DNA from: a virus
Taxonomy: Duplodnaviria > Caudoviricetes
Direction: 5' to 3' (one strand)
Length of the DNA stretch: 52,930 bases
Virus record (IMG/VR): IMGVR_UViG_3300024305_000003
Location: 1 to 52,930 of that record
Numbering within the stretch: the first letter of the stretch is position 1; each line of letters starts with the position of its first letter. A program made the position numbers and the translations under genes. The notes under the pieces were generated by a model. That model worked only from the letters and a program-made list of their open reading frames with translations. It had not been told where the DNA came from and made no database searches. Of this stretch, positions 1 to 34,369 are shown piece by piece.

Positions 1-1050
1 CTATTTCGACGGCTTCGCGATGGCGCCAACCCGGCGATAAACCCGCTCGGTGATCTGCTCTTTTGTGTGGCCAAGCAGCTTGCTGGCGTCTGCCAGATCC
101 AGAATCTCGCTGGCGGCCTTCGGCCGGATGTCGCGAAACTGGAATTGGCGGATGCGGCCAGCCAGGTCAGGGTCGCACTGTTTATCGGCTGCCAAGGCCG
201 CTGCGGCCCTTGCATCATCCCAGCGGTTGCGCAGCATCGCCCTCGACACTCGAAGGCCGCGACGATTAAGTATCAGAAATGGCGATGGGTGACCCGCGTT
301 GCCCGTTGCGATTCGCTCGAGCAAGATGCCGAGAGAGTTCGGTTGGCCCTCATGCTGTGTCTGGATACGAAGGCGCTTACTGGTCTTGCCCTGGCTCACC
401 AACAGGTACCCGTCGACAACATCATCACGCCTCATGCTGAGCACGTCGGCCGGACGTTGCCCAGTGAGATACGCAAGGTCCATGGCGTCACGCAATTCGT
501 GGCAGGCCTGCTGATAGACTGCGGCCCATACGGCGTCATTGGCGTAGTAGTCGCGTGGCTTTTCCTTGTTCTTGCGCACGCCCATGCAGGGGTTCGCCTG
601 CTCGCAAAGGCCCCACTCGCGAGCGATGTTGAAGACGTGGGAGAGCAGGGCGATCTCCCGGTTCGCGCGAGTCTTGGCGGACCTTGCGTCGCGATACTGG
701 GCAATCATGGCTGGGGTGATCGCTTCGATGGGGGCGTTATCGAAAACCGTCCGCAGCTGCTTGAGCTCGGCCTTGTTGTCTCGCTGTGTGCGAGGCGCTT
801 TGCCCGGAATAATGTCTCGCTCATATCGGTCAAGGATGGATTTCATGAGCTTCAGATCGCCCGGCGCGTCGCGAGCCTCCAGTTCCGCCCACCGTAAGCG
901 AGCCTGATTCAGATCGCTGCCCAGCGAGATGTCCTTGCCGTCTGGCCCGCGATAAAAATAGCTGACCCATACCTTCCCGTTTTTTCGCAGGCGAGTGCGG
1001 CGATACATGTTGATTGGAAGGTTGCGGTTCTCCGGCTTGCGTGGGCGCAT
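1..1050 (-). CDS. int: Phage integrase (tyrosine recombinase)
   Basis: 349 aa. Catalytic motifs TGQRPAD (R), RDIRPKAAS, LLGHT and C-terminal VYRR (Y). Confidence 0.95.
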   Translation of the reverse strand: MRPRKPENRNLPINMYRRTRLRKNGKVWVSYFYRGPDGKDISLGSDLNQARLRWAELEARDAPGDLKLMKSILDRYERDIIPGKAPRTQRDNKAELKQLRTVFDNAPIEAITPAMIAQYRDARSAKTRANREIALLSHVFNIAREWGLCEQANPCMGVRKNKEKPRDYYANDAVWAAVYQQACHELRDAMDLAYLTGQRPADVLSMRRDDVVDGYLLVSQGKTSKRLRIQTQHEGQPNSLGILLERIATGNAGHPSPFLILNRRGLRVSRAMLRNRWDDARAAAALAADKQCDPDLAGRIRQFQFRDIRPKAASEILDLADASKLLGHTKEQITERVYRRVGAIAKPSK

Positions 1051-1051
1051 G

Positions 1052-1288
1052 TCAGTTCACTTTCGAAAAGTCTGGGGTCCACGCCTGTTTGGCGGGAGCC
1101 GATGGCTGGGGCTCCACAGCAGGCGTGCCAAGCTGCTGCCTTGCGTACTGCCTTCCCACGAGCGGGCGCCGTCCACGGCTTTCGATGTAATGCCAGCCGT
1201 GACTGTTCAGCCAGCGGCGCTGCCATGCTCGCGCCTGGTAACCGGTGATCATGGCCAGCTCTTCGTCAGAAAGAATTTCACTTTCCAT
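1052..1288 (-). CDS. Excisionase-like protein (DUF4224-like)
   Basis: MESEILSDEELAMITGYQ...QRRWL pattern directly upstream of int. GGAGA RBS before the ATG at 1288. Confidence 0.75.
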   Translation of the reverse strand: MESEILSDEELAMITGYQARAWQRRWLNSHGWHYIESRGRRPLVGRQYARQQLGTPAVEPQPSAPAKQAWTPDFSKVN

Positions 1289-1344
1289 GGGCAATAGTTC
1301 TCCGTCGCCGCTCATCGGTGGGCGGCTGCGCTTTAGGATAAAAA

Positions 1345-1722
1345 TTAGGACAACTGCAGCGTGCCAGCTACCACGGCATGCGGGTTGCGTGAGGTCTGCG
1401 CCAAGCCCAGCACGTAGCGCAGCTTGGGGTCAGCGGCGCGTGTCGAGAGGCGGGCGAGCACGCTGCGCAGGGTGCCGGCGTGCTTGTGGATGGCCGCGGC
1501 GAGGCCCATGCAGAGCACGACCTCCTTGTCACCGAGCGGCTTGCGGTCGGCGCGCCACCACAGGTGCGGGTAGCCGACCTTGCCGCGCTCGCGCACGACC
1601 TTGCCTTCCCGTTCCAATACCGTCAGCTCCGTGCGGATCTGCGCGATGGGCAGGCCCGTCGCCTTGGCGATGTCCGCCGTGGTCGTGCCGTCGATATGAG
1701 TGATGTGCTTGAGCAGGCTCAT
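1345..1722 (-). CDS. Hypothetical winged-HTH protein
   Basis: TTADIAKATGL...IRTELTVLEREGKV is wHTH-like. Start overlaps the upstream stop (ATGA). Confidence 0.55.
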   Translation of the reverse strand: MSLLKHITHIDGTTTADIAKATGLPIAQIRTELTVLEREGKVVRERGKVGYPHLWWRADRKPLGDKEVVLCMGLAAAIHKHAGTLRSVLARLSTRAADPKLRYVLGLAQTSRNPHAVVAGTLQLS

Positions 1723-1925
1723 GCGGCAGCGTCCTCGCATCCGTAGTTGATGAGGCCGGTGGCGCCCTGGTCGGCGTCGTTGGCGATGGTGTTCAGCTGG
1801 CGTGCCAGTTGGCGTAGTTCGGCGGGGCTGAGCGTGATGCCCAGCGTCGGCAGGCCGTAGATCGCGGTGCGCGGCGCGCCGTCATTGCCGAGTGCGTGGT
1901 AGGCCGTCATGGCTCTTTGCTGCAT
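1719..1925 (-). CDS. Hypothetical protein
   Basis: Packed ORF in the left operon with an upstream GGAGA. Confidence 0.5.
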   Translation of the reverse strand: MQQRAMTAYHALGNDGAPRTAIYGLPTLGITLSPAELRQLARQLNTIANDADQGATGLINYGCEDAAA

Positions 1926-2009
1926 GGGGCTTCTCCTTGGGCGGTGTGCAGCGCAGGCAGTCGCATTCGCCGATGCGTTGGCCTGTCGTGCGGCAGTAGG
2001 TGGGGCGGT

Positions 2010-2231
2010 TCATTTCGCTTCGGTCTCGGTCCAGGGCAGGTACTGCAGCTCCCAGGTCGGATGGAACGGCATCGTGTGTTTCAGGCCGTCGAGCTGGATG
2101 TTCAGCCGGCAGTTGCGGGCGCTGCGGATGGTGCCGAACTCCTGCTTGCCGTCGCCGGTGTAGACGACGCGCCCACCGCGCTTGGCGGGCACGCCGTACC
2201 ACTTGCGGGTTCGTTCCATGTTGCCAGCCAT
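2010..2231 (-). CDS. Hypothetical protein
   Basis: 73-aa ORF abutting its neighbours. Confidence 0.5.
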   Translation of the reverse strand: MAGNMERTRKWYGVPAKRGGRVVYTGDGKQEFGTIRSARNCRLNIQLDGLKHTMPFHPTWELQYLPWTETEAK

Positions 2232-2687
2232 CTACGCCTCCTCCTGGCCTGCAGCAGCACGGCGCGCAGCCGCCTCGCCGTCACGAAAGCCGCTCGCCGC
2301 GGCCGTTGCCATATCCACCGCCGAGAAGCCTTCCTGCGCGGGATCGAGCTGAGCGAGTGGCTTCAATCCGTAGTCGCACTTGCAGTCCCATTCCTCGGCC
2401 CAGTATTCGCCTTCGCCGTCGACCCCTTCGCCGTCGATCTCATCCTCTGGCGGGCGATTTTTCACGTTCACCCTCTCGCAGGTGTGCGTGACTTCCCCAG
2501 CAATGACGTTTTCGACCTCCTCGTCCCAGCCATCGTCGAGGTAGCTCTGGATGATCCCGTCCGCCGCTGCATCGCGGTCTTCGGCGGTGCGGAAGTAGGC
2601 GAAGTCCCCGTTCTGCGGATCGAAGATGAAGTAGCGGAACTCTGCGGAAGGCGTGTCACTGCTTGCGATTTTCTCTGCGATGCTCAT
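2232..2687 (-). CDS. Hypothetical acidic protein
   Basis: 151 aa with a GAGGA RBS. Confidence 0.65.
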   Translation of the reverse strand: MSIAEKIASSDTPSAEFRYFIFDPQNGDFAYFRTAEDRDAAADGIIQSYLDDGWDEEVENVIAGEVTHTCERVNVKNRPPEDEIDGEGVDGEGEYWAEEWDCKCDYGLKPLAQLDPAQEGFSAVDMATAAASGFRDGEAAARRAAAGQEEA

Positions 2688-2697
2688 GTGGGTTTCC

Positions 2698-3219
2698 TCA
2701 GAAAAGACTAGGTGTCATGCCGCGCTGCACGTCTGGCTGCGGCGGCGGGATGGGTATCGGGCGTGCGGCCCGCTTGGGTTCAGGTACCGGCTCACCGACG
2801 CGCAGCGCGGGCGGGATCGGTGGCGGGTTGAAGGAGGCGGCCAGCGCCGGTCCGTTGTCGTAGGGCTGCCAGGCCTCGACCAGCTCCCAGCGATCGACAA
2901 AGAAGGACGGCCGCTCGATGAAGTGACCGCCAGCGGCGAACCGCACCTTGACCAGCCCGTCGCCAATCGGCCGGCGGGTGGCCGGCGTCCAGGCGTCCGG
3001 CTCGGCTGCCGGTGCAGCGGGCTCCGCTGGCACATCCTCGGTCATCGCGAGGAACAGGCGCTGCGACTCGTTGCCGGTGGCGATCACCCGTCCGGCGACC
3101 GTCAGGGTGCCGTAGTCGTTGCGCCCGCAGCCCCGGCAGACCTGGTAGTCGAAGACGGCGCCGGCCTTCCGGTTGACGGCTTGCGCATCCTTCATGGCGG
3201 CGCCGCATTTGCATTCCAT
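2698..3219 (-). CDS. Hypothetical protein with an N-terminal Zn-ribbon-like motif
   Basis: MECKCG...CRGCG. RBS GGAGACAGCC-ATG. Confidence 0.6.
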   Translation of the reverse strand: MECKCGAAMKDAQAVNRKAGAVFDYQVCRGCGRNDYGTLTVAGRVIATGNESQRLFLAMTEDVPAEPAAPAAEPDAWTPATRRPIGDGLVKVRFAAGGHFIERPSFFVDRWELVEAWQPYDNGPALAASFNPPPIPPALRVGEPVPEPKRAARPIPIPPPQPDVQRGMTPSLF

Positions 3220-3236
3220 GGCTGTCTCCGCGGGCG

Positions 3237-4958
3237 TTAGGCGGCGAGCGACTGTTGCCGCTGCGTCTGCCAGGGGTTGTTGGCGCGGGCAATGGCGGCC
3301 ATCGGCGGCGGGCTTACGCTGTTGCCGCACATGTGCACCTGCTCGCTCTTGGTGAACAGCCGGCCGTCGTGCCCGCGCTGGATGATGTAGTTCGGCGGGA
3401 AGCCTTGGGCTGCGTACAGTTCATGGGGCTGCAGCATCCGCAGGCAGATGTCGACGATCACGTAAGGGTCGCCGCCGATCCAGACCGTGACCAGCGCCAG
3501 GCGGTCCTTGGTGGTGATGGTGGGCAGCGGCGCGCCAGGTGACGACAGATTGTCCGTACCGTAGTAGCTCATGAGGAAAGCCGCGCAGCGCAGCGCGCCT
3601 TGCTCCACGTCTGGCGAGAGCTTGCATTGGATCAGGGCGTGATGCTCGGCGTCGGCGGTCAGCGTCGGCACCGGCTCGGCCATTCCGCGACCGGCGCAGT
3701 TCTTGCGCAGAGTCACCAGATTGGCCGTCACCAGCTGCTGCTGGCTGCCCCTGTTGGTGACGGTGGTCATGGGGTCATCGAGCGGCTTGGAGTGCGTGGT
3801 GTTGAAACCGCCGTTGGCCTGAGCGAGAAAGGCGGTGGCCAGCGCGTGCTTGATGCCGCCGGCCACTACGGTGCCCAGCGGCTTGTCCATGCCCGGCGCG
3901 CGCGGAGCCTGGCCGGCGCGCTCGCCGTAGCCCACCTGGATCAGACTCGGCGAGGCCAGCGCAAACGAGCCGCCGCGCGGCCAGGCCGTGACGGTGTTGA
4001 GCGGCTGGTCGACCGGCTGCACGGCATCGCGCGACCAGTTGGCGATCGGCACGATGAAGGGCTGGGCCTTGCCGAGCACCTCGCGCTGAATGCCCTTGGC
4101 GATGCGGCGCAGGGTGGCCTCGGCCAGTGGCTTCTTGCGGCCGAAGATGCTCTGGCCCGGTATCGACCAGTCGATGCACTCTGCCGCGGTACGGTAGGGC
4201 TTCTGGCCCTTGGCGGGCCTGGCTGCGTGAGTAGGTGCCGGCCAGACGATCGGCTCGCCGTCGCGCCGGGCGACCAGAAACAGTCGCTCGCGGCTGGTGG
4301 GTGCGCCGAAGTCGCAGGCCTTGAGGATGCGGTGCTCGACGGCGTAGCCCAGCGCCTTCAGCTGCCCGAGGAACTTGCGCCAGGTGCAGCCCTTGCGCTT
4401 CGGATCCGGCACCAGGAACTGCTCACTGCGCGGCACGCGCTCGCCGGGGCCTGCGACCGAGCCGTCGCAGCGCACCACGCGGCCGGTGGCCTTGTCTCGT
4501 TTGGCGATCAGCGGCCCCCATTGCTGGATCTGCTTCACGTTTTCCAGGCTGATGATTCGTGGCTGGCCGATCCCAGCCCACTTGATCACCACCCAGCTCA
4601 GGTTTCGAATCTCGGCGCTTCGCTGCTGGCCGCCCTTGGCCTGGCTGAAATGGGTGCAGTCGGGGCTGGCGTGATACCAGCCGATCTTGCGCCCGGCTAG
4701 CACGCGCACCGGGTCCACTTCCCACACGTCCGTCTGCAGGTGCAGGGCGCCAGGGTGGTTGGCTTCGTGCATGCTGATCGCAGCCGGGTTGTGGTTGATG
4801 GCAATGTGCACCGGTCGCCCGAGGCCCATCTCGAGCCCAGTGCTGGCGCCGCCGCCGCCGGCGAACAGATCGACGTTGATTTCTTCATCCTGCTCGGTAA
4901 GCGGCAGGCCATACTGGGTGCGGAAGTCGAGCGGGGCGGGCTTCTTGAGTGAGGTCAT
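3237..4958 (-). CDS. DNA (cytosine-5) methyltransferase, orphan
   Basis: Motif I DLFAGGGG, motif IV SPDC, motif VI ENV, motif VIII TSRERLF, motif X GNSV. Confidence 0.92.
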   Translation of the reverse strand: MTSLKKPAPLDFRTQYGLPLTEQDEEINVDLFAGGGGASTGLEMGLGRPVHIAINHNPAAISMHEANHPGALHLQTDVWEVDPVRVLAGRKIGWYHASPDCTHFSQAKGGQQRSAEIRNLSWVVIKWAGIGQPRIISLENVKQIQQWGPLIAKRDKATGRVVRCDGSVAGPGERVPRSEQFLVPDPKRKGCTWRKFLGQLKALGYAVEHRILKACDFGAPTSRERLFLVARRDGEPIVWPAPTHAARPAKGQKPYRTAAECIDWSIPGQSIFGRKKPLAEATLRRIAKGIQREVLGKAQPFIVPIANWSRDAVQPVDQPLNTVTAWPRGGSFALASPSLIQVGYGERAGQAPRAPGMDKPLGTVVAGGIKHALATAFLAQANGGFNTTHSKPLDDPMTTVTNRGSQQQLVTANLVTLRKNCAGRGMAEPVPTLTADAEHHALIQCKLSPDVEQGALRCAAFLMSYYGTDNLSSPGAPLPTITTKDRLALVTVWIGGDPYVIVDICLRMLQPHELYAAQGFPPNYIIQRGHDGRLFTKSEQVHMCGNSVSPPPMAAIARANNPWQTQRQQSLAA

Positions 4959-5350
4959 GGGGCGGGCTTCTCGTCGTCATCCGTGACCGATGCGCAGCCG
5001 ATATCGAGATTGCGCAGATCCTGGATTGATATGGTGTTCGTGCCATCGGTGATGGCCCAGCTCGGCAGCTCGAGATTCTTGAACGTGCCGGAGAAATGTC
5101 GGTACGCACCTAGCGCTGCGCGTTTGAACGACTTGGCGGCAACAGTGCCGATAGGAATGTCTTTACCCCCCCCCTTGAGGGTGAGCTGGAACGTAGACAT
5201 AGCTGCGATGCGTTTGGCCGCCGCCCGCACGGTGCTTGGCGCGAGCTTCAGTTCCTTGGCGAGCTCCGGTACAGATTTATCCAGCAGCGCTTCGACAATG
5301 GCCTGGTCTCGCGCGGGGCTGCGCAGGCCGGCATAGATTACGGTTTGCAT
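4955..5350 (-). CDS. Hypothetical HTH-containing protein
   Basis: SVPELAKELKLAPSTVR is HTH-like. RBS GGAGACAGCC-ATG. Confidence 0.55.
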   Translation of the reverse strand: MQTVIYAGLRSPARDQAIVEALLDKSVPELAKELKLAPSTVRAAAKRIAAMSTFQLTLKGGGKDIPIGTVAAKSFKRAALGAYRHFSGTFKNLELPSWAITDGTNTISIQDLRNLDIGCASVTDDDEKPAP

Positions 5351-5435
5351 GGCTGTCTCCAGGCAAAGCGCCGCCATTCCACGCGCGTAGCGGCGGCAAA
5401 GAAAGTTCGTGACGGGATTGCGCGAAAGCTCGCCG

Positions 5436-6443
5436 CTAAGTCGAGGCGCGCTTGAGCTGGTCGGTCAGCTGCGTGGGTAGGTTGCGGATGATCAGCACGT
5501 CGCGGGCCTTGTCGAACTCGACCTTCGAGCCCAGCAGGTGCGATTCGAAGCTGATCGACAGGCCTTCGGTGCGTCCGGTGAAGCGGCGGAACTGATTGAG
5601 GGTGCGCTTGTCCGCCGGGAATTCGGCAGACATGCCGTAGTCCTTGTTGCGGATGAAGTCGGCGAAGGACTTGGGGCGCTCTTCATCGAGCAGGCTGGAC
5701 AGTTCTTCGAGGGTGATCGCCTCGCCGAGCTTGGCCTGGGCGGTGGCGTAGTCGACCAGCGCGCTGGTCTTTTCGCGCGCCTGTTCCTCCGGCAGGTCTT
5801 CGCTTTCGACGTAGTCGCTGAAGGCCTTGAGCAGGGTGCGGGTCTCGCTCGGGGCGTCGACGCCCTCCTGGCAGCCGATGAAGTCACGGAAGTACTCCGT
5901 GGCCCTGCGCCCCTGCTTGCCCTTCAGGCAGGAGATGTATTGCCTCGACTGTGCGTTGTTGCGCCACTCGCTGAGGTTGATGCGCGCAGCCAGGTGGAGC
6001 TGGCTCACGTCCAGGTACTTGGCCGTCTCGACGTCCAGCGCCTCGCTGACGGCTACGCCTTCGCTGTGATGCAGCAGGGCGATGGTGAGGTAGTCGGTCA
6101 TGCCCTGCTGGTAGTGCGCGAACAGCACGTGGCCGCCGGTGGCCAGGTTGGATTCCTCCATCAGCCGCTGCAGGTGCTCGACCGCGTCATGGCTGAAGCT
6201 GGCGAAATCACGGCCGCCGTCGAGGTAGTCTTTCAGCCAGCCGCTGAGTGGGTAGGCGCCGGACTCTGCGTGAAACAAGCCCCAGGCCTTGCCAGGCTTG
6301 GCATTGTAGCTCTCGTTGAGGTCGGCCAGCAGGTTATCCATGGCGCTCGAGTCGCCAACTTCAGAGCTGCGGGCGGTAAGAATGGACGGCGAACCGTCGG
6401 GCTTCTTGTCGATGAGGTGAATGATTGCGTGGCGGATCGGCAT
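5436..6443 (-). CDS. yejK: Nucleoid-associated protein, YejK/NdpA family
   Basis: 335 aa from [13 protein letters not shown]. Contains [20 protein letters not shown] and a C-terminal LIIRNLP. GAGG RBS. Confidence 0.88.
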
Positions 6444-6477
6444 GGCTTGCCTCGGAATGCAGGGATAGGGAAAAGCC

Positions 6478-6498
6478 GCCCAGCGCTGCGCGCCGGGC
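6478..6498 (-). promoter_or_regulatory. DGR target-2 downstream hairpin (GCCCGGCGC-GCA-GCGCTGGGC)
   Basis: 9-bp GC-rich stem with one G-T pair and a 3-nt loop, 13 nt after the stop codon of the VR2 gene. Confidence 0.7.
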
Positions 6499-6511
6499 AA
6501 ATTCATAAAGG

Positions 6512-7093
6512 CTAAATTTTCAATCTGCGGACGGGGCGCACCAGATACGCATCGGTCTTGCCGTAGTTGTACTGGGAGCCATCGCTGAAGCGCTGGATCC
6601 AGGCGCGGTAGGTGTTGGGAGCGTACTCAGTCGAGGTCCAATACCATTCGCCATCCTTGAATGACTCCGGGGCGTTGATCCACGCCAGCGCGAGCTCTGC
6701 CTTGGATGGCAGGTAGAAGTCCCCGAAATCGCCCTGCTTGAAGGCAGCGGCATATTCGGCGGCCGGGTGATCACTTTCAGCGAGCAGCGCTCGGGTATTG
6801 CTGGCGCCGTCGCGCAGGCTTGAGGCGCTCGACTTCTTGCCGTAGCCACCCCATTCCAGCTCTGGATCCTCATGCTCGACGGGAACGATGAGATGCCAGC
6901 GCTCGCCGTTGTCATGCATCACGCCGGCGTAGATGCCGCCTTGCTCTGGCCACATCTGCCCTGGGGAGTGGGTGGTCGGGCAGTCATTGCGGGTCGCGCT
7001 GGAGAGCTCGATCTCAAGCGCGACCCTGATCAGCTCCGGGTTGTCAGTGATGATTCTGGTGTTTCCTTCGGTCAGTTCGATGAGGCGGCTCAT
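6512..7093 (-). CDS. Remote DGR target protein 2: stand-alone C-type-lectin-fold (DUF1566/Lcl-like) protein
   Basis: 193 aa with [25 protein letters not shown] and VRPVRR motifs. The C-terminus contains VR2. Paralogous to the C-terminal domain of 32131..33645. Confidence 0.9.
6523..6634 (-). repeat. DGR variable region VR2
   Basis: 112-nt ungapped match to the TR (34258-34369) with 10 mismatches, all opposite TR adenines. Confidence 0.96.
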
Positions 7094-7148
7094 GTGACGG
7101 GCTCCTTGCTGGCGTAAATATGGTGTGCGTGACGCATTGGCGTGACGG

Positions 7149-7418
7149 CTAGGGTGTTTTGATCAGGTCGGCATGGACGGACGGCGCTTGCTGGCTTAGC
7201 CGGTACGCTCCGTGGATCAGGCGGGTTATAAAGTCTTGGGGCTCGTCGATGCCGGCCCGCCCCATCATCTCCACAAGCTTGGCGTCGGTGCCCTTGAACA
7301 AATCGAGCTTGATCGAGCGGGAGAGGAGGCGGGCCAGCCGCTCTTCCTCGGCGAGCTTGTCGCGCTCGCGCTTCTCACGCTGGCGGTCAGTGGCGGACTT
7401 GGCTGTCATGCGCGGCAC
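7149..7418 (-). CDS. Hypothetical protein
   Basis: Packed ORF with a basic N-terminus; the start may be 7409. Confidence 0.55.
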   Translation of the reverse strand: MPRMTAKSATDRQREKRERDKLAEEERLARLLSRSIKLDLFKGTDAKLVEMMGRAGIDEPQDFITRLIHGAYRLSQQAPSVHADLIKTP

Positions 7419-7819
7419 CGCCCGTCGTCGCGCAGTTCTATGCCGTACTTGGCAGCGATCTGCTCCACCATCACGGTGTTGAGCTTGAAGCCTTGCCCTT
7501 TGAGGGCCTTGTAAATCTCGTAGGAGGTGCGCCCGATGGGGCCGTGCTCCGTCTCGATGACGGCCAGGTCGGCGATGCGCCCAGCAAGCTCGGCCTGTTG
7601 CCGCTCCTGCTCGCGGCGCGCCTTTGCCTGGCGGGTGATGCTGGTGTTCCAGCAGGACGGCTTCTGCGGTGCACGCTCGGCGTGGTCGAGCCGGGTGATC
7701 GATCCGCCGCCCGCCAGAAAGGCGCCGACATGGACAAGTAGGGCGCGGCGATCCGTCTCCCGGCCCGGCGGGGTCGGAAGGTTGAGTGTGGTGAGGTGGT
7801 GCATGTGAGTCTCCGTCAA
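7406..7819 (-). CDS. Hypothetical protein
   Basis: Contains AFLAGGGSIT; the start may be 7804. Confidence 0.55.
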   Translation of the reverse strand: MTETHMHHLTTLNLPTPPGRETDRRALLVHVGAFLAGGGSITRLDHAERAPQKPSCWNTSITRQAKARREQERQQAELAGRIADLAVIETEHGPIGRTSYEIYKALKGQGFKLNTVMVEQIAAKYGIELRDDGRCRA

Positions 7820-7853
7820 GGCGCCCTGTGCGGGCGCCGAATCGGGTGGAAGG

Positions 7854-9575
7854 TCAGGCGGCGATGCGCTGCTCGATGTTGCCGATGTGGGCGATCAGGC
7901 TTGTGCAGATGCGGGCGAAGTCCGAGGCGCGGTAGAGCACCGTGGCCCGGTCGCGACCGACCGGCTCGATGCCGATGCTGCGCAGGAAGTCGGCGGTCAG
8001 CGAGAAGCCCAGGCGGGCATTGATGTCGCCCAGCTTGATGCGCTGGCCGTCGTCTGCCGGCTGCAGGGTGGCTGTTGCGGTCGGGTGCAGGTCGAGCGTC
8101 CGGGTCAGTTCGGCGACGAACACCGTGTCACTGATTTCTGCGGCCGGCTGTGGTGGCGCTTCGGCGGCCAGGCGTTCGCGCTCTGCGGATTGCTCGGCCT
8201 GCTCCTTGCCGGCCTGCTCGCGCGCCAAGGCGGCGCGCTCTTCCTCGCGGATGCGCTCGCGCTCGGCTTCGGCGCGGGCCTCGGCCTTGGCTTTCTCCTC
8301 GGCTTCGTGCTCGGCGATGCGGCTCTTGATGATCGCCTCCAGCGCCTCGTTGTCCTTGAGCACCAGGTGCTGGGTATCGCTGAACAGGAAGGCATGGTCG
8401 GCGGCCAGAGTGCGCAGGCTGGCCAGGTTGGTTTCGATGGCTTCGGCGGCGGCGTTGGCTTCGATCTTCAGCCGGGCCAGTTCGGTATCGGCGGCGTCCT
8501 GCAGGGTGGCGATGGTGCGCTTGCCCTTCATCACGCCGGCGAAGTCGGCGCGGATCGGTGGCAGTTGCACCTTGCCCAGGCGCTTGTTGATCGCCCCGAC
8601 GTGGGCCGCGAAGGCGCTCTCCGCGCCCATCTTGATCTCCAGGCGGCGCTGCTCTTTCATCGCCTTGACCAGCTTGTCCAGCTCCAGGCGCGTGCTGCGG
8701 GCTTCGGCGGTGATGTCGTCGATCGCGCTGAACAGCCGATCGATGCTCTCCGTCTGGCTCAGGGCGTGCTGCTTGGCGGCCTTCAGCCGGTCTTCGACAT
8801 CGCCGCACCACTTCACGGCCTGCTCGGCATCGGCAAAGTCCTGATCGGTGACCAGATCGCGATTGATCGCGCCGATCACGTCCAGCGCGTGCGCCTTGAA
8901 AGCGTCTAGGTTGCTGTTGGTGACCATGCCGGTGACTTCGATGCGCAGCGCTGGCAGCGTTTCCGGGGTGCGGCCCACGGTCTTGGGCGCGGCAGGCGCC
9001 TCGGGCTCGAAGGAGGCCAGGTCTTCCTCGAACTGCTTCCAGCCCGCGAGGATCTGCTCGATGCGGCCGGGCACCGGGCGGTACTCGAGGTGATGGAAGT
9101 TGTCCTCGGTGCCGTCCGAGCAGACGAAGATCGCGCGCTCGGCGCCTGAAACGTGCAGTTGTTGCTCCAGCTGGACCCAGTAGTGCGCTTCCAGCTCGCC
9201 GGCGGCGATCTGCTGGATCAGTGACTGATTGAGCGCCTTGTGCTCGAACAGGGTGTCGCCGAGCATCGTCATGCCGTCCATGCTCGCCAGCAGGCCGCCG
9301 CGCGTTCCGACCACCGGGTAGAGGTCTTCGCCGATCATGCGTTCGACGATGGGCCGCGCCGCGGCCTCGGTGGCGTGCCCGTTATCGAACAGCCGCTGGG
9401 TAGCGGCGTCGACCTCAGGCGCCAGGCCTGTTTTCTTCTGTTGCAGCAGGTCGCTGCGGCTCTGGTACTTGGAGACGCCGAGCATGGCCGGCGCTTCGGA
9501 GGCAGTGAAGTACTCCGCGCGCAGGGCATGCCACTCTGGCGAGCCCTGCTGTACGTCGTGGATGGTCATGTTCAT
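7854..9575 (-). CDS. YqaJ-like viral recombination exonuclease with long C-terminal coiled coil
   Basis: QGSPEWHALR, TASEAPAMLG, ASMDG and FEHK PD-(D/E)xK motifs. Confidence 0.88.
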   Translation of the reverse strand: MNMTIHDVQQGSPEWHALRAEYFTASEAPAMLGVSKYQSRSDLLQQKKTGLAPEVDAATQRLFDNGHATEAAARPIVERMIGEDLYPVVGTRGGLLASMDGMTMLGDTLFEHKALNQSLIQQIAAGELEAHYWVQLEQQLHVSGAERAIFVCSDGTEDNFHHLEYRPVPGRIEQILAGWKQFEEDLASFEPEAPAAPKTVGRTPETLPALRIEVTGMVTNSNLDAFKAHALDVIGAINRDLVTDQDFADAEQAVKWCGDVEDRLKAAKQHALSQTESIDRLFSAIDDITAEARSTRLELDKLVKAMKEQRRLEIKMGAESAFAAHVGAINKRLGKVQLPPIRADFAGVMKGKRTIATLQDAADTELARLKIEANAAAEAIETNLASLRTLAADHAFLFSDTQHLVLKDNEALEAIIKSRIAEHEAEEKAKAEARAEAERERIREEERAALAREQAGKEQAEQSAERERLAAEAPPQPAAEISDTVFVAELTRTLDLHPTATATLQPADDGQRIKLGDINARLGFSLTADFLRSIGIEPVGRDRATVLYRASDFARICTSLIAHIGNIEQRIAA

Positions 9576-10339
9576 GCGTCGGTTACCTCGAGGTCGCGGA
9601 TGGCTTGTTTCTGCTCGTCGGTCAGCACGACCTTCGAAGCGGACATCTTGATGATGCGATCGGCGGTGGTTTTGCCGCCCTCGATCAGGTCTTTCCAGTC
9701 GGCCAGCTTGGTGGCGAACTCGGTGTCGTCGTAGGCGGGGAGGCTGGCCGGCTGCTGTTCCAGCGATTTGCGTTCGGCGGGCTGGCTGGTCCGAATCGCG
9801 CCCATGTCGCGCTCTGCCGGCATGTCCTGAACTTCCTCGGCGACCGGCATACCGCGCAGCACGTCGGGGAAGACGTCACGCAAGGCGAAGGCTCGCGCCC
9901 GCATCTGGCGCATGCGCTTGGGGTGCTGGGTCCAGGGGCCGGACTTGCCGGTCAGCCCGGCAGTTTTCGCGTCATCCATGCTGAAGGTACGGACCTGCTC
10001 GTCCTCGCCGCGACGCTTCACGCGGCAGGTGGCAATGTGGCCGTCATCTGTCTCGTAGATGTATTCGCAGAGCGGCGAGCCGCGCACCAGGGCGATCACT
10101 GCGTCGCCCCACAGCGCCGGGCGCCCGTTGATCACTGCGATGTTCTGCATGGCCTGCATCGGCTGCAGGCCAAGCTCAAGACCCCACTGGATGGCCACCA
10201 GGATGTTGCCGGGGTTACCGCTGAAGTCCTTGGGCACGATGCTGGACTTGGCGAGGATGTCGGCGAAGCGCATGGCCTCGTCGAGCGATTGGGGCGTGAG
10301 GCTGAACCCCTTGGCGGGGGATACGGCGATATCAGTCAT
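9572..10339 (-). CDS. recT: RecT-like single-strand annealing protein
   Basis: GLELGLQPMQAMQNIAVINGRP and GPWTQHPKRMRQMRARAFALRDVFPD; coupled to the exonuclease gene. Confidence 0.78.
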   Translation of the reverse strand: MTDIAVSPAKGFSLTPQSLDEAMRFADILAKSSIVPKDFSGNPGNILVAIQWGLELGLQPMQAMQNIAVINGRPALWGDAVIALVRGSPLCEYIYETDDGHIATCRVKRRGEDEQVRTFSMDDAKTAGLTGKSGPWTQHPKRMRQMRARAFALRDVFPDVLRGMPVAEEVQDMPAERDMGAIRTSQPAERKSLEQQPASLPAYDDTEFATKLADWKDLIEGGKTTADRIIKMSASKVVLTDEQKQAIRDLEVTDA

Positions 10340-10398
10340 CGTGTTCTCCAGGCACGCAGCCCCCTACGGGCTTGCGCATTGGTCAGGTGGGTGGGCGG

Positions 10399-10711
10399 TC
10401 AGGAAAAGGTGTGTTCGATAATCAGCCGCCCGGCGAGCGCCAGGCTGAAGAGGCTCACTGCGGCGAAGCCGCCGCAAAGCAGCAGGGCGCGCTCGGTCAT
10501 CCGGTGATCTCCCCTGCGAGCGCGCTCAGGTAGACCCAGCCGGTGAACACGGCCAAGGCGATCGCGAAACCTCGCCAGAAGGCGTAGCGCTTGGCGCGCT
10601 GGTAGCGGGTCATATGCCCCCCAGCAGGCCCACATGGACCAGATAGGCAAGGAAGGGGGCGACAACGAACAGCAGGCCGGCGCCACCCGCGATTTCCTTC
10701 AGGGCATGCAT
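10399..10711 (-). CDS. Three coupled small hydrophobic ORFs (10610-10711, 10497-10613, 10399-10500)
   Basis: 33-38 aa each, each with one TM-like stretch; linked by ATGA start/stop overlaps. Confidence 0.5.
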
Positions 10712-11574: not shown

Positions 11575-11594
11575 TAGGCCGTGGCGTTGAGATA

Positions 11595-13004: not shown

Positions 13005-13879
13005 ATCAAATGGCCTGCCGCCTTGGCGTAGGATGCGGGATCGAGCAAATCTTGCAGCAACTGGATGATGGCGTCGATGTCGATCTGCTCGAAGAACTCA
13101 GACAGCACTTGCCGCGCTGCGTTCTCGCCATCCTGCCGGAAGCTCACTGCAAAGCCATTATATGCCATGACTCGAATACCCGAGTTGGGCAGCTTCTCGC
13201 TCCAGTGCGGGTTGTGCAGGTCGATCAGCCACTGGAGCCTGTTTATGCATGGGTCGGGGAAGGTGCCGGTGCGCCCGGGCGTCCAGTTGGGGAAGTTGAG
13301 GATGCGCCCGTGATCGATGAGCGTCAGGCTGTTTGGCCCGGACGCAAGTAAGTTGCCCGCGTTGCGGTCCGAGTTCATCAGCCAGCCATCGAACGCGATG
13401 ACCTTGGGCGAGTCCGGGTTCTTGGCCAGCTCTAGTGAAAGGCGCTTCAGGCGCCGGTCATGCAAAGAGGTCAGCTGCGCACCACTGAGGTGCCGCTGTT
13501 TAAGGCTCGGGAACTGCATGTCCTGGCTGAACCAGCAGAAGTAGTCTTTCTGCTGATGGCGCCCTGCAGCCTTGTCCAGCTCAGGCCAGAGCGAAGCTGG
13601 GATCTGCTCTCGGTCAAGCATGATGATGCCGGCCGTAGACGGAACGGTCAGCCCACAGGACTTGGCGAGCACGTGGCCTAGCGCCTCGTTGATCAGCTCC
13701 TGGTTGGCTACGTACCGCCCTGTAGTCGGGCACTGGATCTGGTCGGTGAGCGGCTTTACGTAGCAGCGAATCGAGCCGGCCGCGGTGCGAACCTTGGCTC
13801 TGAAAATCGGACTTATCCCCTTGCTCGCCGGTTCGCGGAGCGTACCCCCAAAAGCGTCACTGCTTAGAATTTCGATCAT
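13001..13879 (-). CDS. HipA-like Ser/Thr kinase
   Basis: CYVK lysine, INEALGHVLAKSCGLTVP helix, catalytic loop FDGWLMNSDRNAGNLL, Mg-binding LIDHG. Confidence 0.85.
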   Translation of the reverse strand: MIEILSSDAFGGTLREPASKGISPIFRAKVRTAAGSIRCYVKPLTDQIQCPTTGRYVANQELINEALGHVLAKSCGLTVPSTAGIIMLDREQIPASLWPELDKAAGRHQQKDYFCWFSQDMQFPSLKQRHLSGAQLTSLHDRRLKRLSLELAKNPDSPKVIAFDGWLMNSDRNAGNLLASGPNSLTLIDHGRILNFPNWTPGRTGTFPDPCINRLQWLIDLHNPHWSEKLPNSGIRVMAYNGFAVSFRQDGENAARQVLSEFFEQIDIDAIIQLLQDLLDPASYAKAAGHLI

Positions 13880-14393
13880 CGGCCTTCAGTTTTCCCCTGA
13901 GCTTTTCATAGCTTCCCGCCCGGCCTTTTGCGTGCTCTGTCGGCGCGCTTTCGAAACGAGCAGCGATGCGATCCAGTAATTGCACGTCTTCATCCGTAAG
14001 CCGGCCCTGAGCGGCCGCCCGTGCGATTCTTTCCAGGGCGCGGCGCGAGCGCGGCGTGGTGATCATTGCGAGCAAGTTGGCCTGCTCTGCGGTAGCCGAC
14101 CGAGCTGGGCTGTCTTCGCCGACGCATGACTCCGTATTTTCGGCAGGCGCAACCATGGCGCCCTCGCCGTACTGCAGCCACTCAACGCGCACGCCAAGCT
14201 CATTGGCGATAGCAACCATGTTGGCGCGACCTGGCATGGACTCTGCGTTCCACCACTTGCTCGAAGCCTTCGGGGTTTTTCCTGTCATTTCCGCGAGGCG
14301 AACGCCAGCGCCCCACTCGGGAATGCCGGCGTGAGCTAGAGCTTTTTTTAAGCGAGCGACAAATTCGCTACGCAGATCATCCGACTGAACCAT
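13857..14393 (-). CDS. cI: CI-like repressor (XRE HTH), no S24 peptidase domain
   Basis: HTH (LAEMTGKTPKASSKWWNAESMP...LGVRVEWLQYGEG); divergent from cro. Confidence 0.8.
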   Translation of the reverse strand: MVQSDDLRSEFVARLKKALAHAGIPEWGAGVRLAEMTGKTPKASSKWWNAESMPGRANMVAIANELGVRVEWLQYGEGAMVAPAENTESCVGEDSPARSATAEQANLLAMITTPRSRRALERIARAAAQGRLTDEDVQLLDRIAARFESAPTEHAKGRAGSYEKLRGKLKADDRNSKQ

Positions 14394-14457
14394 AGGTTCA
14401 ATATCCCACGCGCTTGCGTGTACTTTCAGTACCGGCATAATATGTACCTTAAGTTCA
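14386..14457. promoter_or_regulatory. OR operators (14386-14400, 14419-14433, 14443-14457) and PR (TTGCGT 14414, CATAAT 14436)
   Basis: TGAAC-CATAG-GTTCA, TGTAC-TTTCA-GTACC and TGTAC-CTTAA-GTTCA lie between cI and cro. Confidence 0.75.
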
Positions 14458-14478
14458 TAAATGCTCGGAGACCTCGTG

Positions 14479-14874
14479 GTGAGCGCATTAAAAGAAGCCA
14501 TCAATAAGCTCGGAGGGGTTGCGCAGGCAGCAACTCTATGTGGGGTAAGCCAGCGGGCAATCTACAAATGGCTGAGCTCAGGAACCCTTCCTCGCACTGA
14601 ATACACGGGTGAAACCCATTACGCCTCCCGGCTCGCTGATGCGTCCGCTGGCCAGTTCACCGCCGAATGGCTGCTTGCTGAGGCAGCCCCAACGAAGACG
14701 GCGACCCAGCAGGCCAGCCCTAAGCCTGCCCAACAAGGCGAACGCCGAGCCCCGCGCAAACCAGCCGACCGCCGCGGCCGTCGTGAAACCGATCTATCCA
14801 CCCAGGAAGCCAGGGAGCTGCTGGAGAGCGCCGAGAAGCTCGCCGGCACGCTCCAGCGCATCGCCAAGGACTGA
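14479..14874 (+). CDS. cro: Cro-like HTH regulator
   Basis: AINKLGGVAQAATLCGVSQRAIYKWL; GTG start (14476 or 14479) after GGAG. Confidence 0.8.
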   Translation: MSALKEAINKLGGVAQAATLCGVSQRAIYKWLSSGTLPRTEYTGETHYASRLADASAGQFTAEWLLAEAAPTKTATQQASPKPAQQGERRAPRKPADRRGRRETDLSTQEARELLESAEKLAGTLQRIAKD

Positions 14875-31816: not shown

Positions 31817-32134
31817 ATGGACGTATTTTCCAAGCAGCCAAATGACGTCCTGGATTACGACGTTGACCTGACCGACTGGTTTGCCGATATCGCGGACGAC
31901 GATATCGAGTCGGTCGAGATTACCGTCGCCAGCACAGCGGAGCCGGTACCGGCATTGGTGCTGGGCCCGGCGCCGCACAATCCCTACGTTCTGCTGGGCG
32001 CAAGCCCGCAGCGCTTCAAGCTGTGGCTGGGGGGCGGCACGCACTTCGTCGATTACATCGTGACCTGCGTCGTGCGCACCGAGCAGGACCGGGTTAAAGA
32101 AGTCGAGTTCAAGATCAAGGTGCGTGACAAATGA
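31817..32134 (+). CDS. Putative fibre adaptor
   Basis: KQPNDVLDYDVD...WLGGG...GD/RVKEVEFKIKV pattern. Confidence 0.55.
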   Translation: MDVFSKQPNDVLDYDVDLTDWFADIADDDIESVEITVASTAEPVPALVLGPAPHNPYVLLGASPQRFKLWLGGGTHFVDYIVTCVVRTEQDRVKEVEFKIKVRDK

Positions 32135-33645
32135 GCTATGCCAATTTCGTAGAAACGCAGCTGGACGGGCCGTTGACGGCTGAAGGCCTTAGCCTGCTGC
32201 TTCAGCCTGCTCAGGCGCCATACCAGCTACCGCCTGCTGACGGCGGCGTGCTCGTGCTGGCGGACAGCATGGGCAAGCCTGCCGCTGTGGAAATCATCCG
32301 CTATGCCGCGCGTGACGGCCTGACCCTCACCGGGCTGGAGCGGGGGCTCGAAGGGACGGTTGCGCTGAACTGGCCCGGCAACAGCTACTGCTATCAGTCG
32401 CTGACGGCGGGCGGCTTCGAGGCGGTAAAAGAGATCATCGATGTCCATGTCGCCGACCAGAACCCACACCCGCAGTATCTGGTTGCCGAATCCGCCGTAA
32501 GCCTCGAAGGCCCGACCGGCATCTACATTGCGCAGAGCGTGCAATTCCAAATCACCGACTACGACGTGTTCAGTGGCTACCTGGTCCAGGTCTCGGCCGG
32601 CACCGCCAGCATTGCCGGCAGCACGATCAGTTTCACCGCGCCCATGGAGGCGGGCAGCGTGACGCTGACCGTATTCGCGGGCGACTACCGGCGCGACATC
32701 ACGCTGGAGATCCTGCCGGAGCGCCCTGCGGCGCCGGTCATCACATCACCGGAAGCCACCGGCGTCATGGGCAACCCGACGCTATCGACCGGCCCCTTCG
32801 CCCTGATCGGGCCGAACACCGACACCCATGCGGCGACCGACTGGGAAATCTGGACGGGGGCAGGGCGCACCGGGACGCTGGTCTGGTCCTCGCTGAACAA
32901 CTCCACCAGCAAGCTGAGCATCACGCTGCCGGAAAACACGCTGACCGTCGCGACGGACTACCACATGGCGGTTCGGCACATTGGCACAACGTTCGGCGCG
33001 GGCGAGTGGGCAGAGCTGGCGTTTCGGACGGCTGATCAGTTCCTGCCGACCGTCATCGGGCAGGCCTTTGGCGGCGGGTTCTACGCGGGCAAGATCCGCT
33101 ACGCCGATGGCGACTACATCATTATCGTCGCGCCCAAATCTGCCGAGGCCACTCTGGCTCACAAGACGGCGAACAGCGCGACCGCTGGGACGTCGAGCTA
33201 TCACGACGGCCTGGCGAACAGCAACAGCATGAACAACGCCACGCACCCGGCGGCCCAGTATTGCCGCGCCTACAACGGTGGCGGCTTTACCGATTGGCAC
33301 CTGCCCGCGCGCGACCAGTTGGAGTTGTTGTATCGGAACCTCAAGCCAGACACTACGGCGAACATCACTGGCTCGCGCGCCGAGGCCGGCAACCATGGTG
33401 ATAACGCCAACAGCGTCCCGGTTGGCGCTTCGTATACGACCGGCAGCCCGGCCCAGACATCGGCCGCAGCGTTCAAGACGGGCGGAGCCGAGGCATTCGC
33501 AGTGCCTACCTGGTACTGGACCTCGACTGAGTACGCTCCCAACACCAGCGCCGCCTGGGTCCAGCGCTTCAGCGATGGCGGCCAGAGCTTCAGCAACAAG
33601 GCCGTTGCGTATCTGGTGCGCCCCGTCCGCAGATTGAAAATTTAG
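32131..33645 (+). CDS. DGR target protein 1: tail-fibre/receptor-binding-like protein with C-terminal CLec (DUF1566-like) domain
   Basis: 504 aa in the tail module; Ig/FN3-like middle; C-terminal WHLPARDQL, WYWTST and VRPVRR; contains VR1. Confidence 0.88.
   Translation: MSYANFVETQLDGPLTAEGLSLLLQPAQAPYQLPPADGGVLVLADSMGKPAAVEIIRYAARDGLTLTGLERGLEGTVALNWPGNSYCYQSLTAGGFEAVKEIIDVHVADQNPHPQYLVAESAVSLEGPTGIYIAQSVQFQITDYDVFSGYLVQVSAGTASIAGSTISFTAPMEAGSVTLTVFAGDYRRDITLEILPERPAAPVITSPEATGVMGNPTLSTGPFALIGPNTDTHAATDWEIWTGAGRTGTLVWSSLNNSTSKLSITLPENTLTVATDYHMAVRHIGTTFGAGEWAELAFRTADQFLPTVIGQAFGGGFYAGKIRYADGDYIIIVAPKSAEATLAHKTANSATAGTSSYHDGLANSNSMNNATHPAAQYCRAYNGGGFTDWHLPARDQLELLYRNLKPDTTANITGSRAEAGNHGDNANSVPVGASYTTGSPAQTSAAAFKTGGAEAFAVPTWYWTSTEYAPNTSAAWVQRFSDGGQSFSNKAVAYLVRPVRRLKI
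33523..33634 (+). repeat. DGR variable region VR1
   Basis: 112-nt ungapped match to the TR with 13 mismatches, all opposite TR adenines. Confidence 0.97.
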
Positions 33646-33661
33646 CCTTTGACCCTTTGAT

Positions 33662-33679
33662 GCCCGCGCTTGCGCGGGC
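33662..33679 (+). promoter_or_regulatory. DGR target-1 downstream hairpin (GCCCGCG-CTTG-CGCGGGC)
   Basis: Perfect GC stem 16 nt after the stop codon of the VR1 gene. Confidence 0.75.
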
Positions 33680-33698
33680 TAGAGCCTGCAGTTTGCAC

Positions 33699-34109
33699 AT
33701 GTCCAAATCGAAAAACCTGCCGATCTACCGCGCCAGCTACGAGTTGTTGAGCCTGGTCACCGAGCTTATTCGTCACTTCGCCCGCGACTTTCGCCCATCG
33801 CTGGGTCAGCGCCTGCACAACGAGGCCGTACTGCTGGTGCTGATGATCTATCGCGCCAATGCGGCGGAGGACAAGCTGCCCTACATCGGCAAGCTGCTGG
33901 AAACGCTGCAGGTGGTGGAGATGCTGCTGCAGCTGTCCGCTGACCTCAAGCTGATCAGCCTGAAGCAATACGCCCGCTCCGCAGAGCTGACCGCCGATAT
34001 CGGCAGGCAGGCTGGCGGATGGCAAAAGTTCGCCGCGAGCGGTAACGCCTCGCGCAAACATCATGTCAGCAGGCTCAACGCGTCGCCCGCTGCTGGATTG
34101 CCACGGTGA
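33699..34109 (+). CDS. avd: DGR accessory variability determinant (four-helix bundle)
   Basis: NLPIYRASYELL...FRPSLGQRL...IGRQAGGWQK; lies between VR1 and the TR. Confidence 0.88.
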   Translation: MSKSKNLPIYRASYELLSLVTELIRHFARDFRPSLGQRLHNEAVLLVLMIYRANAAEDKLPYIGKLLETLQVVEMLLQLSADLKLISLKQYARSAELTADIGRQAGGWQKFAASGNASRKHHVSRLNASPAAGLPR

Positions 34110-34257
34110 TCCTTCCCGCGCGATTTATCTGGTTGCGTCCCTGGGCTGCGGCCCACGACAGGCCCTTGCGAAACCGCTGCACCATTGCAGCAGGTCTACG
34201 GGCAGTTTCCCGGCTGATCGGCACACGCCTTCGGCTGGGCGACGTGAAGACGCAACT

Positions 34258-34369
34258 TCGACTGAGTACGCTCCCAACACCAACAACGCCTGGATCCAGC
34301 GCTTCAGCGATGGCAACCAGAACAACAACAACAAGACCAATGCGTATCTGGTGCGCCCCGTCCGCAGAT
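34258..34369 (+). ncRNA. DGR template repeat (TR)
   Basis: Non-coding, AAC-rich copy of both VRs (33 A, 9 AAY codons) between avd and RT; diverges from the VRs after CCGCAGAT (IMH*). Confidence 0.96.

Follow-up and report, generated by a model that had tools for sequence, protein, structure and literature searches.

A small lectin-fold protein gene in the early leftward arm of a lambdoid provirus as a highly probable second, in-trans target of a single diversity-generating retroelement

The sections of Wu et al. (2018; PMC5758913) cited here treat trans and remote targets of diversity-generating retroelements (DGRs) as established: 45 of 372 DGRs had non-adjacent targets, including prophage ones, and approximately half of the DUF1566-type targets were short proteins consisting of that domain alone. 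The exemplar of their category 'd' (DUF1566/CLec2) is Legionella LdtA, a surface lipoprotein. The early-operon position and the function of DUF1566 targets are not addressed in those sections. In the cited part of Roux et al. (2021; PMC8144416), viral targets were mostly annotated as tail proteins and non-structural ones appear only in passing, while the corresponding part of a 2023 paper (PMC10053308) raises, as a speculation, that cellular immunity might employ recognition proteins diversified by DGRs in the cytosol. Burkholderia phage Magia (MT701587, PMC7883833) has had small targets (genes 47 and 57) in its annotation since 2021. In the literature, supplementary tables being outside the scope, we found no study on the function, timing or location of small phage targets, and the available portions of the papers on Cruim01 (PMC11256456) and PhiPan70 (PMC4576196) make no mention of a retroelement or reverse transcriptase (RT). 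Here, we analyzed the gene at positions 6512-7093 (minus strand) of the provirus IMGVR_UViG_3300024305_000003 (Caudoviricetes), which encodes a protein of 193 amino acid residues (aa). The analysed stretch of 52,930 nucleotides (nt), termed the window, is the entire IMG/VR record, with a CheckV completeness of 100%.

We regard it as almost certain that the 193-aa protein is a small soluble variable protein with a C-type-lectin fold and the second, in-trans target of the provirus's single DGR. The elements concerned are as follows.

6512..7093, minus strand: gene of the small variable protein, 193 aa (open reading frame (ORF) call, Pfam, PHROGs, AlphaFold2 (AF2), Foldseek)
6523..6637, minus strand: variable repeat (VR) 2, the last 38 codons before the final three residues, 90% identical to the template repeat (TR)
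6507..6522, minus strand: 16 nt past the TR homology, including the stop codon; candidate VR-specific part of the initiation of mutagenic homing (IMH) element
6476..6500, minus strand: GC-rich hairpin, 24 nt 3' of VR2, 9-11 pairs, 3-nt loop; presumed DGR target-recognition hairpin
32131..33645, plus strand: late-module DGR target of 504 aa, with an N-terminal part of approximately 310 aa fused to a DUF1566 domain
33520..33634, plus strand: VR1 in the 504-aa target
33662-33679: VR1 hairpin, 7 pairs, 4-nt loop, start at +27
33657..34109, plus strand: Avd accessory protein (bAvd, PF22296; Pfam), the ATG at 33701 being the likelier start
34255..34369, plus strand: TR, 34 adenines in 115 nt (repeat comparison)
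34392..35492, plus strand: DGR RT (RVT_1; RT comparison)

TR matched VR1 and VR2, and nothing else, in the entire provirus, and VR2 lies on the strand opposite to TR and the RT gene, 27.6 kb away. A preliminary description of this stretch, made from the letters alone, had proposed a second DGR target here, and the repeat comparison bears this out: 10 of the 11 differences between VR2 and TR over 115 nt are at TR adenines, as are 13 of the 14 differences between VR1 and TR. The sole non-adenine difference is a T-to-C change at the 5' edge, which is common to VR1 and VR2. With 34 adenines in the 115-nt TR, the chance of all 11 differences falling on adenines is approximately 4e-7. Exactly three AAC codons of TR read TAC in VR2, the number given in the preliminary description. 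The last 28 nt of the repeat are identical across TR, VR1 and VR2, and the next 16 nt (6507-6522, with the stop codon) are identical between VR1 and VR2 but unrelated in TR. Nucleotide likeness between the two target genes was found to be a 140-nt inverted repeat only (6507-6646 and 33511-33650, 87% identity), which agrees with the earlier claim that near-identity is confined to the VR and IMH. A scan for GC-rich hairpins assigned 9 pairs, including one G-T, to the hairpin downstream of VR2 and found none comparable 3' of TR. Folded individually, the hairpins of VR1 and VR2 were modestly more stable than shuffled sequences (z of -2.1 and -1.4, respectively) and were therefore tested family-wide (see below).

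In the mechanism that we propose, RNA of TR (34255-34369, adjoining the RT gene) would be copied with adenine-specific errors, and the resulting cDNA would replace VR2 (6523-6637), guided by the GC-rich 3' end, the 16-nt VR-specific extension and the downstream hairpin. Such a replacement would alter at most about a dozen codons (AAC, AAT, ATC and ACC), which encode parts of the final strands and loops of the lectin domain.

The ORF starts with an ATG preceded by AAGGAG 8 nt upstream, and its GC content at third codon positions (0.78) is similar to that of the adjoining genes. The sole Pfam match of the protein is Lcl_C/DUF1566 (PF07603; residues 109-189, E-value of 2.2e-8); the score of this single sequence is 34.8 bits against a gathering cut-off of 34.9, and a precomputed PF07603 assignment is present on many of its relatives. 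PHROGs assigned the protein to phrog_4245 (labelled as unknown function) with an E-value of 1.6e-31 over the C-terminal 165 of 583 profile positions. A structure prediction, suggested as a check in the preliminary description, yielded a confident model of the lectin domain (AF2 with 66 homologues; mean pLDDT of 91.2, pTM of 0.77). The model comprises an N-terminal module of residues 1-33 (strands 5-9 and 12-16, helix 19-33), a linker of low confidence at approximately residues 31-40 (block mean pLDDT of 54) and a compact alpha/beta lectin domain up to residue 192. Thus, Pfam and AF2 agree with the proposed architecture of a short N-terminal peptide plus a single CLec/DUF1566-like domain. In the PDB, Foldseek ranked the C-terminal domain of Legionella Lcl first (8q4e, E-value of 6.4e-5), the next ranks going to a fimbrial protein of Bacteroides and to classical C-type lectins; the family profile also matched the Lcl chain 8q4e (E-value of 3.6e-9). 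The NCBIfam model adhesin_Lcl scored 16 bits against a cut-off of 500. The net charge is -9. No hydrophobic segment (maximal 19-residue Kyte-Doolittle mean of 0.5) and no lipobox were found in the 193-aa protein, in line with the earlier statement that it lacks a signal peptide and a transmembrane segment, and the N-termini of its relatives are similar. A prediction of a three-copy complex scored 0.24 against a mark of 0.42. The N-terminal 45 aa had no paralogue in the window beyond itself (tblastn), and a look-alike search with residues 1-45 gave nothing usable.

The 193-aa protein was described beforehand as a diverged paralogue of the late-module target, and this relationship holds: BLASTP aligned its residues 52-193 with residues 315-504 of the 504-aa protein at 34% identity (E-value of 2e-27), the latter carrying an insertion of approximately 48 residues, and all four motif pairs quoted in the preliminary description appear in the alignment. 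Searched against a phage collection, the 504-aa protein matched 9 records, every match lying within residues 276-504. The window RT is 53-57% identical to the RTs of Magia, Haboob, phPA-G, Cruim01 and others and 32% identical to Brt of BPP-1, and groups with phage-DGR RTs.

A protein search with the 193-aa sequence recovered 296 relatives at E-values up to 1e-3 among 442 candidates. The best 120 of the 296 were mostly 158-251 aa long; their named sources were Pseudomonas, Stutzerimonas, Azotobacter and Paraburkholderia, together with one compost metagenome, and the closest were 93% (P0001, source JGI) and 88% identical (P0002, Stutzerimonas stutzeri). A search for longer proteins gave 33 matches among 1116 candidates, all of fibre type and none with another informative domain. 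We collected 73 loci from species-representative genomes (212 stretches matched, 139 relatives, best 80 kept) and 80 from IMG/VR (359 stretches matched, 327 relatives, best 80 kept), and examined all 153 within flanks of 10 kb. An RT was found in 116 of the 153 loci, always on the strand of the small gene, and the family RTs were 51-59% identical to the window RT where tabulated, apart from one truncated match that was lower. In 112 of the 116 RT-bearing loci, the sequence immediately 5' of the RT gene matched VRs elsewhere in the locus. When matches shorter than 70 nt, or with fewer than 80% of their mismatches at adenines, are left aside, these 112 loci contain 253 VRs in small stand-alone genes (two VRs in 73 loci, three in 34 and one in 5), and 3394 of 3570 VR mismatches are at TR adenines. 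The unfiltered listing gave a like pattern, with a few noisy loci (L069, L050 and L024). All 253 VRs are on the RT strand; 38 lie more than 3 kb from their own TR, the farthest at 10.5 kb.

The 3' features of VR2 recur in this family. By a rule of at least 6 pairs, at least 5 of them G-C, and a loop of 3-6 nt within 70 nt downstream, a GC-rich hairpin follows 176 of the 253 VRs, mostly starting at +25 to +35, compared with 3 of 253 TRs and 29 of 1265 shuffled sequences; both hairpins of the window satisfy this rule. Over the 20 nt past the TR homology, VRs of the same locus share 51% identity (29 of 169 pairs with at least 15 of 20 matching), against 24% between VR and TR (none of 242 pairs). 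Altogether, the preliminary description was right in seeing a stand-alone lectin-fold target, while its picture of an isolated oddity does not hold, the 193-aa protein being one of several hundred small DGR targets.

The alleles of this family, compared at the protein level, are actively diversified. Three relatives (P0002, P0156 and P0157) share one identical backbone and carry three different VRs, and a fourth, P0154, is identical to the window protein. Among 7 sequences of the window clade, 13 of the 23 VR codons with a TR adenine are variable and none of the 15 VR codons without one, compared with 16 of 155 columns outside the VR. In a 90%-identity cluster of P. aeruginosa with 194 members, all 15 listed members differ in the VR on near-identical backbones. 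The sister alleles have N, D, S, G or F at the Tyr codons of the window protein. The Tyr-rich, paratope-like surface put forward earlier is thus the feature of one allele, and the sister alleles rule it out as a property of the family.

No near-identical DNA of the small gene was found in viral contigs (single-protein query), in 401 genomes of the family and 67 of the genus, where the only strong match was to orf137 and orf89, or in a metagenome scan. The exact 35-nt pattern led to one metagenome contig of 1013 nt, a 95% relative of the core DGR that starts inside VR1 and is without VR2. In the assembled contigs of the 24 listed runs, 'other letters' at 6553-6610 were considered as VR2 variation and left unused, as all of them are towards TR and at least part of these contigs are from TR or VR1. 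One piece from run X2 (6557-6923) has 9 differences, against 0-1 in 7 other X2 pieces, the positions not being fully listed; this piece is suggestive of VR2 variation. The public assemblies break at the VRs (6522 and 33634; runs X2-X5), several contigs starting exactly at 6522 or ending within the repeat. DGR repeats fragment short-read assemblies and may hide remote targets in surveys.

The small gene resides in the leftward early operon between the recombination genes and yejK/methylase, as noted beforehand; the neighbours were confirmed, all of them on the minus strand. The window is a lambdoid, Pseudomonas-type provirus whose leftward arm is entirely on this strand and runs from a repressor-like gene through two uncharacterized genes, RecT, a YqaJ-type exonuclease, orf137, orf89, the small target and YejK to orf140, a C5 methylase, small ORFs and the integrase.

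13857..14504, minus strand: repressor-like gene, head of the leftward arm
7149..10339, minus strand: upstream operon genes, namely RecT, YqaJ-type exonuclease, orf137 and orf89 (phrog_4093)
9572-10339, minus strand: RecT
7854-9575, minus strand: YqaJ-type exonuclease
1..6506, minus strand: downstream operon genes, namely YejK/NA37, orf140, C5 DNA methylase, small ORFs and integrase
5436-6506, minus strand: YejK/NA37 (Pfam)
3237-4958, minus strand: C5 methylase (Pfam)
1-1050, minus strand: integrase

The same surroundings recur among the relatives: one or more early or lysogeny markers were found within 10 kb in 111 of the 153 loci, nearly all on the same strand, with the following counts.

CI-type repressor: 38 of 153 loci
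Cytosine methylase: 35 of 153 loci
YqaJ or other exonuclease: 23 of 153 loci
Erf: 19 of 153 loci
SSB: 15 of 153 loci
RecT: 9-11 of 153 loci
Integrase: 11 of 153 loci

All tabulated early markers are on the strand of the small gene except for 4 methylase matches, and CII and Ant are on the opposite strand, as expected. The depositors' annotations of 5 of 5 isolate phages (Magia, phPA-G, Medea1, U9 and D3) give the same early context. The gene order is lectin-fold target, nuclease, RecT, ATPase, regulator, lectin-fold target, Avd and RT in Magia, with the integrase further downstream; CI, DUF1566, Avd and RT in phPA-G, with exonuclease and methylase further downstream; and ERF, YqaJ, SSB, two DUF1566 genes, methylases and integrase in Medea1. 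Four IMG/VR records of at least 91% completeness and phPA-G were scanned as complete or near-complete relatives. In 5 of 5, the family profile matched two small genes and TR itself, and nothing else; these DGRs therefore appear dedicated to small proteins. That an entire DGR clade occupies the early leftward operon and serves small lectin proteins without a signal has apparently not been pointed out previously.

Because the protein has no export signal and its gene has a position of the lambda-PL type, and because the relatives, usually with the whole DGR, also sit in the leftward operon, the 193-aa protein would be made early after induction or infection and would bind its ligand within the cell, away from the virion, as a module open to diversification; we regard this reading, drawn from gene position and sequence, as the best of those considered, with an even chance of being correct. 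The conserved module position speaks for it, as does the occurrence of the family, including its N-terminal module, in phages of different tail types: according to the cited parts of the respective papers, Cruim01 and Aurca01 are siphoviruses (PMC11256456), PhiPan70 is myovirus-like (PMC4576196) and Magia is a myophage (PMC7883833). It is also favoured by phage D3, which is viable with only a decayed copy: in D3 orf68, the C-terminal part is shifted out of the reading frame seen in the family, and the frame equivalent to the VR is lost. An anti-defence or anti-competitor target of the protein would be one possibility among several; the anti-defence and host-takeover roles put forward in the preliminary description are conjectural, and its interpretation is thus supported in part. 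A more far-reaching proposal, possible albeit on the doubtful side, is that this DGR clade of temperate phages of Pseudomonas and Burkholderiales hosts serves not tail-fibre tropism but one to three small early lectin-fold proteins, which would form an antibody-like repertoire of intracellular binders against fast-evolving proteins of host defence or rival phages; the window protein would belong to this repertoire and would have remained subject to the DGR after the core DGR had moved to the tail module.

Several points weigh against an early, intracellular role. The early-operon place of the cassette might serve retrohoming, through timing with replication and recombination, and not the function of the targets. 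No PADLOC defence family matched the 193-aa protein at E-values up to 0.01. YejK adjoins the small gene in 1 of the 153 loci besides the window, and there is no consistently adjacent partner. A late marker was found in 1 of the 153 loci, which is a weak negative because the marker set is small and window-specific (proteins of the window plus one endolysin). The relatives with differing VRs (P0002, P0156 and P0157) were compared as proteins only. Furthermore, in this phage the sister DUF1566 domain is covalently fused to a structural-module protein, and such domains can therefore work on a virion; by analogy, a free subunit docking on a fibre would be the natural evolutionary neighbour of the fused one.

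This last point leads to an unlikely, albeit the most serious, alternative, namely that the protein is a virion-associated accessory adhesin, using its 33-aa N-terminal module to attach, without a covalent bond, to a fibre or tail part and providing a second, independently diversified specificity. Most structural look-alikes of the 193-aa protein in the viral structure library are C-termini of tail fibres, signal peptides are missing from virion proteins as well, and the DGRs of the 5 of 5 complete relatives have no other target, so that the small proteins would have to be adhesins if these are tropism DGRs. What disfavours the adhesin is that both the window and the relatives have the gene among the leftward early genes and not with the tail genes, that the family with its N-terminal module spans phages of different tail types, that D3 retains a decayed copy only, and that the N-terminal 45 aa are without a paralogue in the window.

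We consider it improbable that the protein is expressed in the lysogen (or very early) and binds proteins of competing phages, as the variable sensor of a superinfection-exclusion or defence module. The gene orf68 of D3, a phage in which no DGR was recognized, lies directly 3' of cI on the same strand, a rex-like position; 38 of the 153 loci have a CI-type repressor at a distance of up to 10 kb and on the strand of the small gene, and the idea of cytosolic DGR-diversified recognition proteins was raised for cellular DGRs in the cited part of PMC10053308. In the window, however, the gene is approximately 7 kb 3' of the repressor and behind the recombination genes, no sigma-70-like or other promoter-like site was found just upstream of it, no effector domain or partner is evident, and PADLOC gave no match.

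A further suggestion of the preliminary description was that the protein might act as a decoy, diverting sensors that recognize the fibre tip. Because VR1 and VR2 differ from each other at most of the variable codons, the protein is unlikely to be a faithful one.

The position of VR2 also raises the question of whether it is still in use, and the comparison with relatives suggests how the layout may have arisen. In the relatives, the gene adjoining the small target encodes a second stand-alone protein of approximately 190 aa, which is closer to the C-terminal 190 aa of the 504-aa protein (36-47% identity) than to the small target. The window is thus a split variant: in the late module, the second target type, together with Avd, TR and RT, is attached to an N-terminal part of structural type, and the first target type appears to have remained in the early operon, inverted and at a distance of 27.6 kb. 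Contigs of approximately 26 kb in runs X3, X4 and X5 link the VR2 side to the inverted VR1 side; because they show the same join, the split cannot be put down to faulty assembly of this one record. Searched with the window RT, the U9, Medea1 and D3 records and the L046 and L051 genomes gave no RT; this search had no positive control, though the query does detect RTs in other records. The survey of DGR-less homologues that had been suggested beforehand, carried out in a rough form, gave a GC hairpin 3' of 184 of 243 genes in RT-bearing loci, against 12 of 35 genes where the available flank contained no RT: hairpin and DGR occur together, and the hairpin is retained at VR2. That VR2 is a relic of an ancestral early-operon cassette, no longer diversified, or that the protein has no selected function, is very improbable: although all 253 VRs within 10 kb of an RT in the relatives are on the RT strand while VR2 is inverted and 27.6 kb away, and although homologues without a recognized DGR exist (U9, Medea1, D3, and the L046 and L051 genomes), the frame is intact, the GC-rich 3' end, the 16-nt extension and the hairpin that most RT-less loci lack are kept, 10 of 11 VR2-TR differences are at adenines, sisters of identical backbone carry different VRs, and trans and remote DGR targets are established (as cited from PMC5758913).

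Other observations concern the surroundings of the small gene. The VR2 hairpin is the strongest terminator-like site in 4800-15200, where the number of such sites is no higher than in shuffled sequences. A T-rich tail directly follows the hairpin (6476-6500), which might attenuate read-through into yejK besides serving the DGR. The YejK ORF overlaps the hairpin with its listed start (6506; stretch 6441-6506, minus strand), and the NA37 profile begins at residue 28; translation seems to begin at an internal Met, 21 codons further on, which would place the hairpin in an intergenic gap of approximately 68 nt. In BFVD, a 571-aa siphovirus 'nucleoid-associated protein' (A0A8S5QER2, rank 13) matched the fold of the 193-aa protein with an E-value of 2.3e-5; it may be a fusion of YejK-like and DUF1566 parts, notable as yejK is the next gene in the window. 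No NA37/YejK fusion was found among the 33 longer homologues (of 1116 candidates).

In a genome of the probable host genus (L162, G284:C6:390759-391494), orf137 and orf89 matched at 82% nucleotide identity and the match ended before the small target gene, which consequently appears, at the level of sequence, to be a swappable cassette downstream of conserved early genes. In Medea1 (L075), a gene annotated as an adenine-specific methyltransferase (10959-12251) occupies the slot in which relatives have the RT, after two DUF1566 genes and a small ORF; the DGR of Medea1 appears lost or replaced, with its targets left frozen. Jumbo phages of the PA5oct group (approximately 285 kb, lytic, Pseudomonas) encode proteins partly homologous to the lectin domain, aligned to residues 38-193 or 80-193 at 33-42% identity, and are not among the listed RT matches. 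Directly 3' of the repressor in the window, in a rex-like position, two genes (12117-13879, minus strand) match the PADLOC candidate system PDC-M66 weakly and in the right order (13001-13879 as M66A, E-value of 0.0046; 12117-13004 as M66B, E-value of 0.0012), the former with an additional sub-threshold match to HipA-like kinases; they may be a prophage-borne defence pair.

The rightward arm begins with replication genes at approximately 14600 and comprises O-like and P-like replication genes, NinB, a Q-like gene, spanin, the small and large terminase, portal, major capsid and further head/structural proteins, the 504-aa target, Avd, TR, RT, an internal virion protein and a tail fibre. It ends with a polyvalent protein of 2739 aa (44130-52349, plus strand), which closes the late module and carries InPase, LPD5, LPD1 and LPD38 domains; large polyvalent proteins are thought to be delivered with the phage DNA. 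No match to a tube, sheath or tape-measure protein was found among the scanned late ORFs of the provirus.

Phage DGRs are understood almost entirely through receptor-binding proteins, and here 116 loci with 253 VRs are located in the recombination/methylase/integrase arm. If the small targets do act inside the cell, this would be the first non-structural function for phage DGRs, and compact binders that can be diversified would be available from nature. With one TR serving two targets that belong to different expression modules, the window lends itself to testing; the activity, timing and phenotype of both can be compared within one phage, and isolates with the same cassette (Magia, phPA-G and Cruim01) make the question directly testable.

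Compared with known systems, D3 orf68 and its counterparts in Medea1 and vB_Pae_U9 belong to the same protein family as the 193-aa protein and share its leftward-operon position; unlike the window, no RT was found in these phages with the window RT query, and the downstream hairpin is mostly missing in RT-less loci. Magia, whose RT is 57% identical to that of the window, likewise has small stand-alone lectin-fold targets with IMH-like ends in a leftward operon, in its case with nuclease, RecT, Avd, RT and integrase, and one of its targets lies approximately 7 kb from the RT; the targets have no assigned function. They differ from the 193-aa protein in being shorter (120-126 aa), in having no N-terminal module and in lying on the RT strand within one operon, and Magia has no structural-protein target. 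The category 'd' targets have DUF1566-type VRs in common with the window, whereas the 193-aa protein has neither the signal nor the lipobox of surface lipoproteins of the LdtA type. The best match among solved structures, the C-terminal domain of Legionella pneumophila Lcl (PDB 8q4e), belongs to the same Pfam family (PF07603), but Lcl is a secreted collagen-like adhesin that is not diversified and shares approximately 14% sequence identity with the 193-aa protein. Mtd of BPP-1 is a larger, trimeric tail-fibre tip encoded adjoining its DGR, whereas the 193-aa protein is small and encoded by a remote, inverted gene in the early operon, outside the structural module; at its N-terminus, where fibre-attachment or trimerisation domains would be sought, it has a hairpin/helix module of 33 aa only. 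In both systems, nevertheless, a C-terminal C-type-lectin fold is subject to adenine-specific mutagenesis from TR to VR, with a GC-rich 3' element, a downstream hairpin, Avd and RT.

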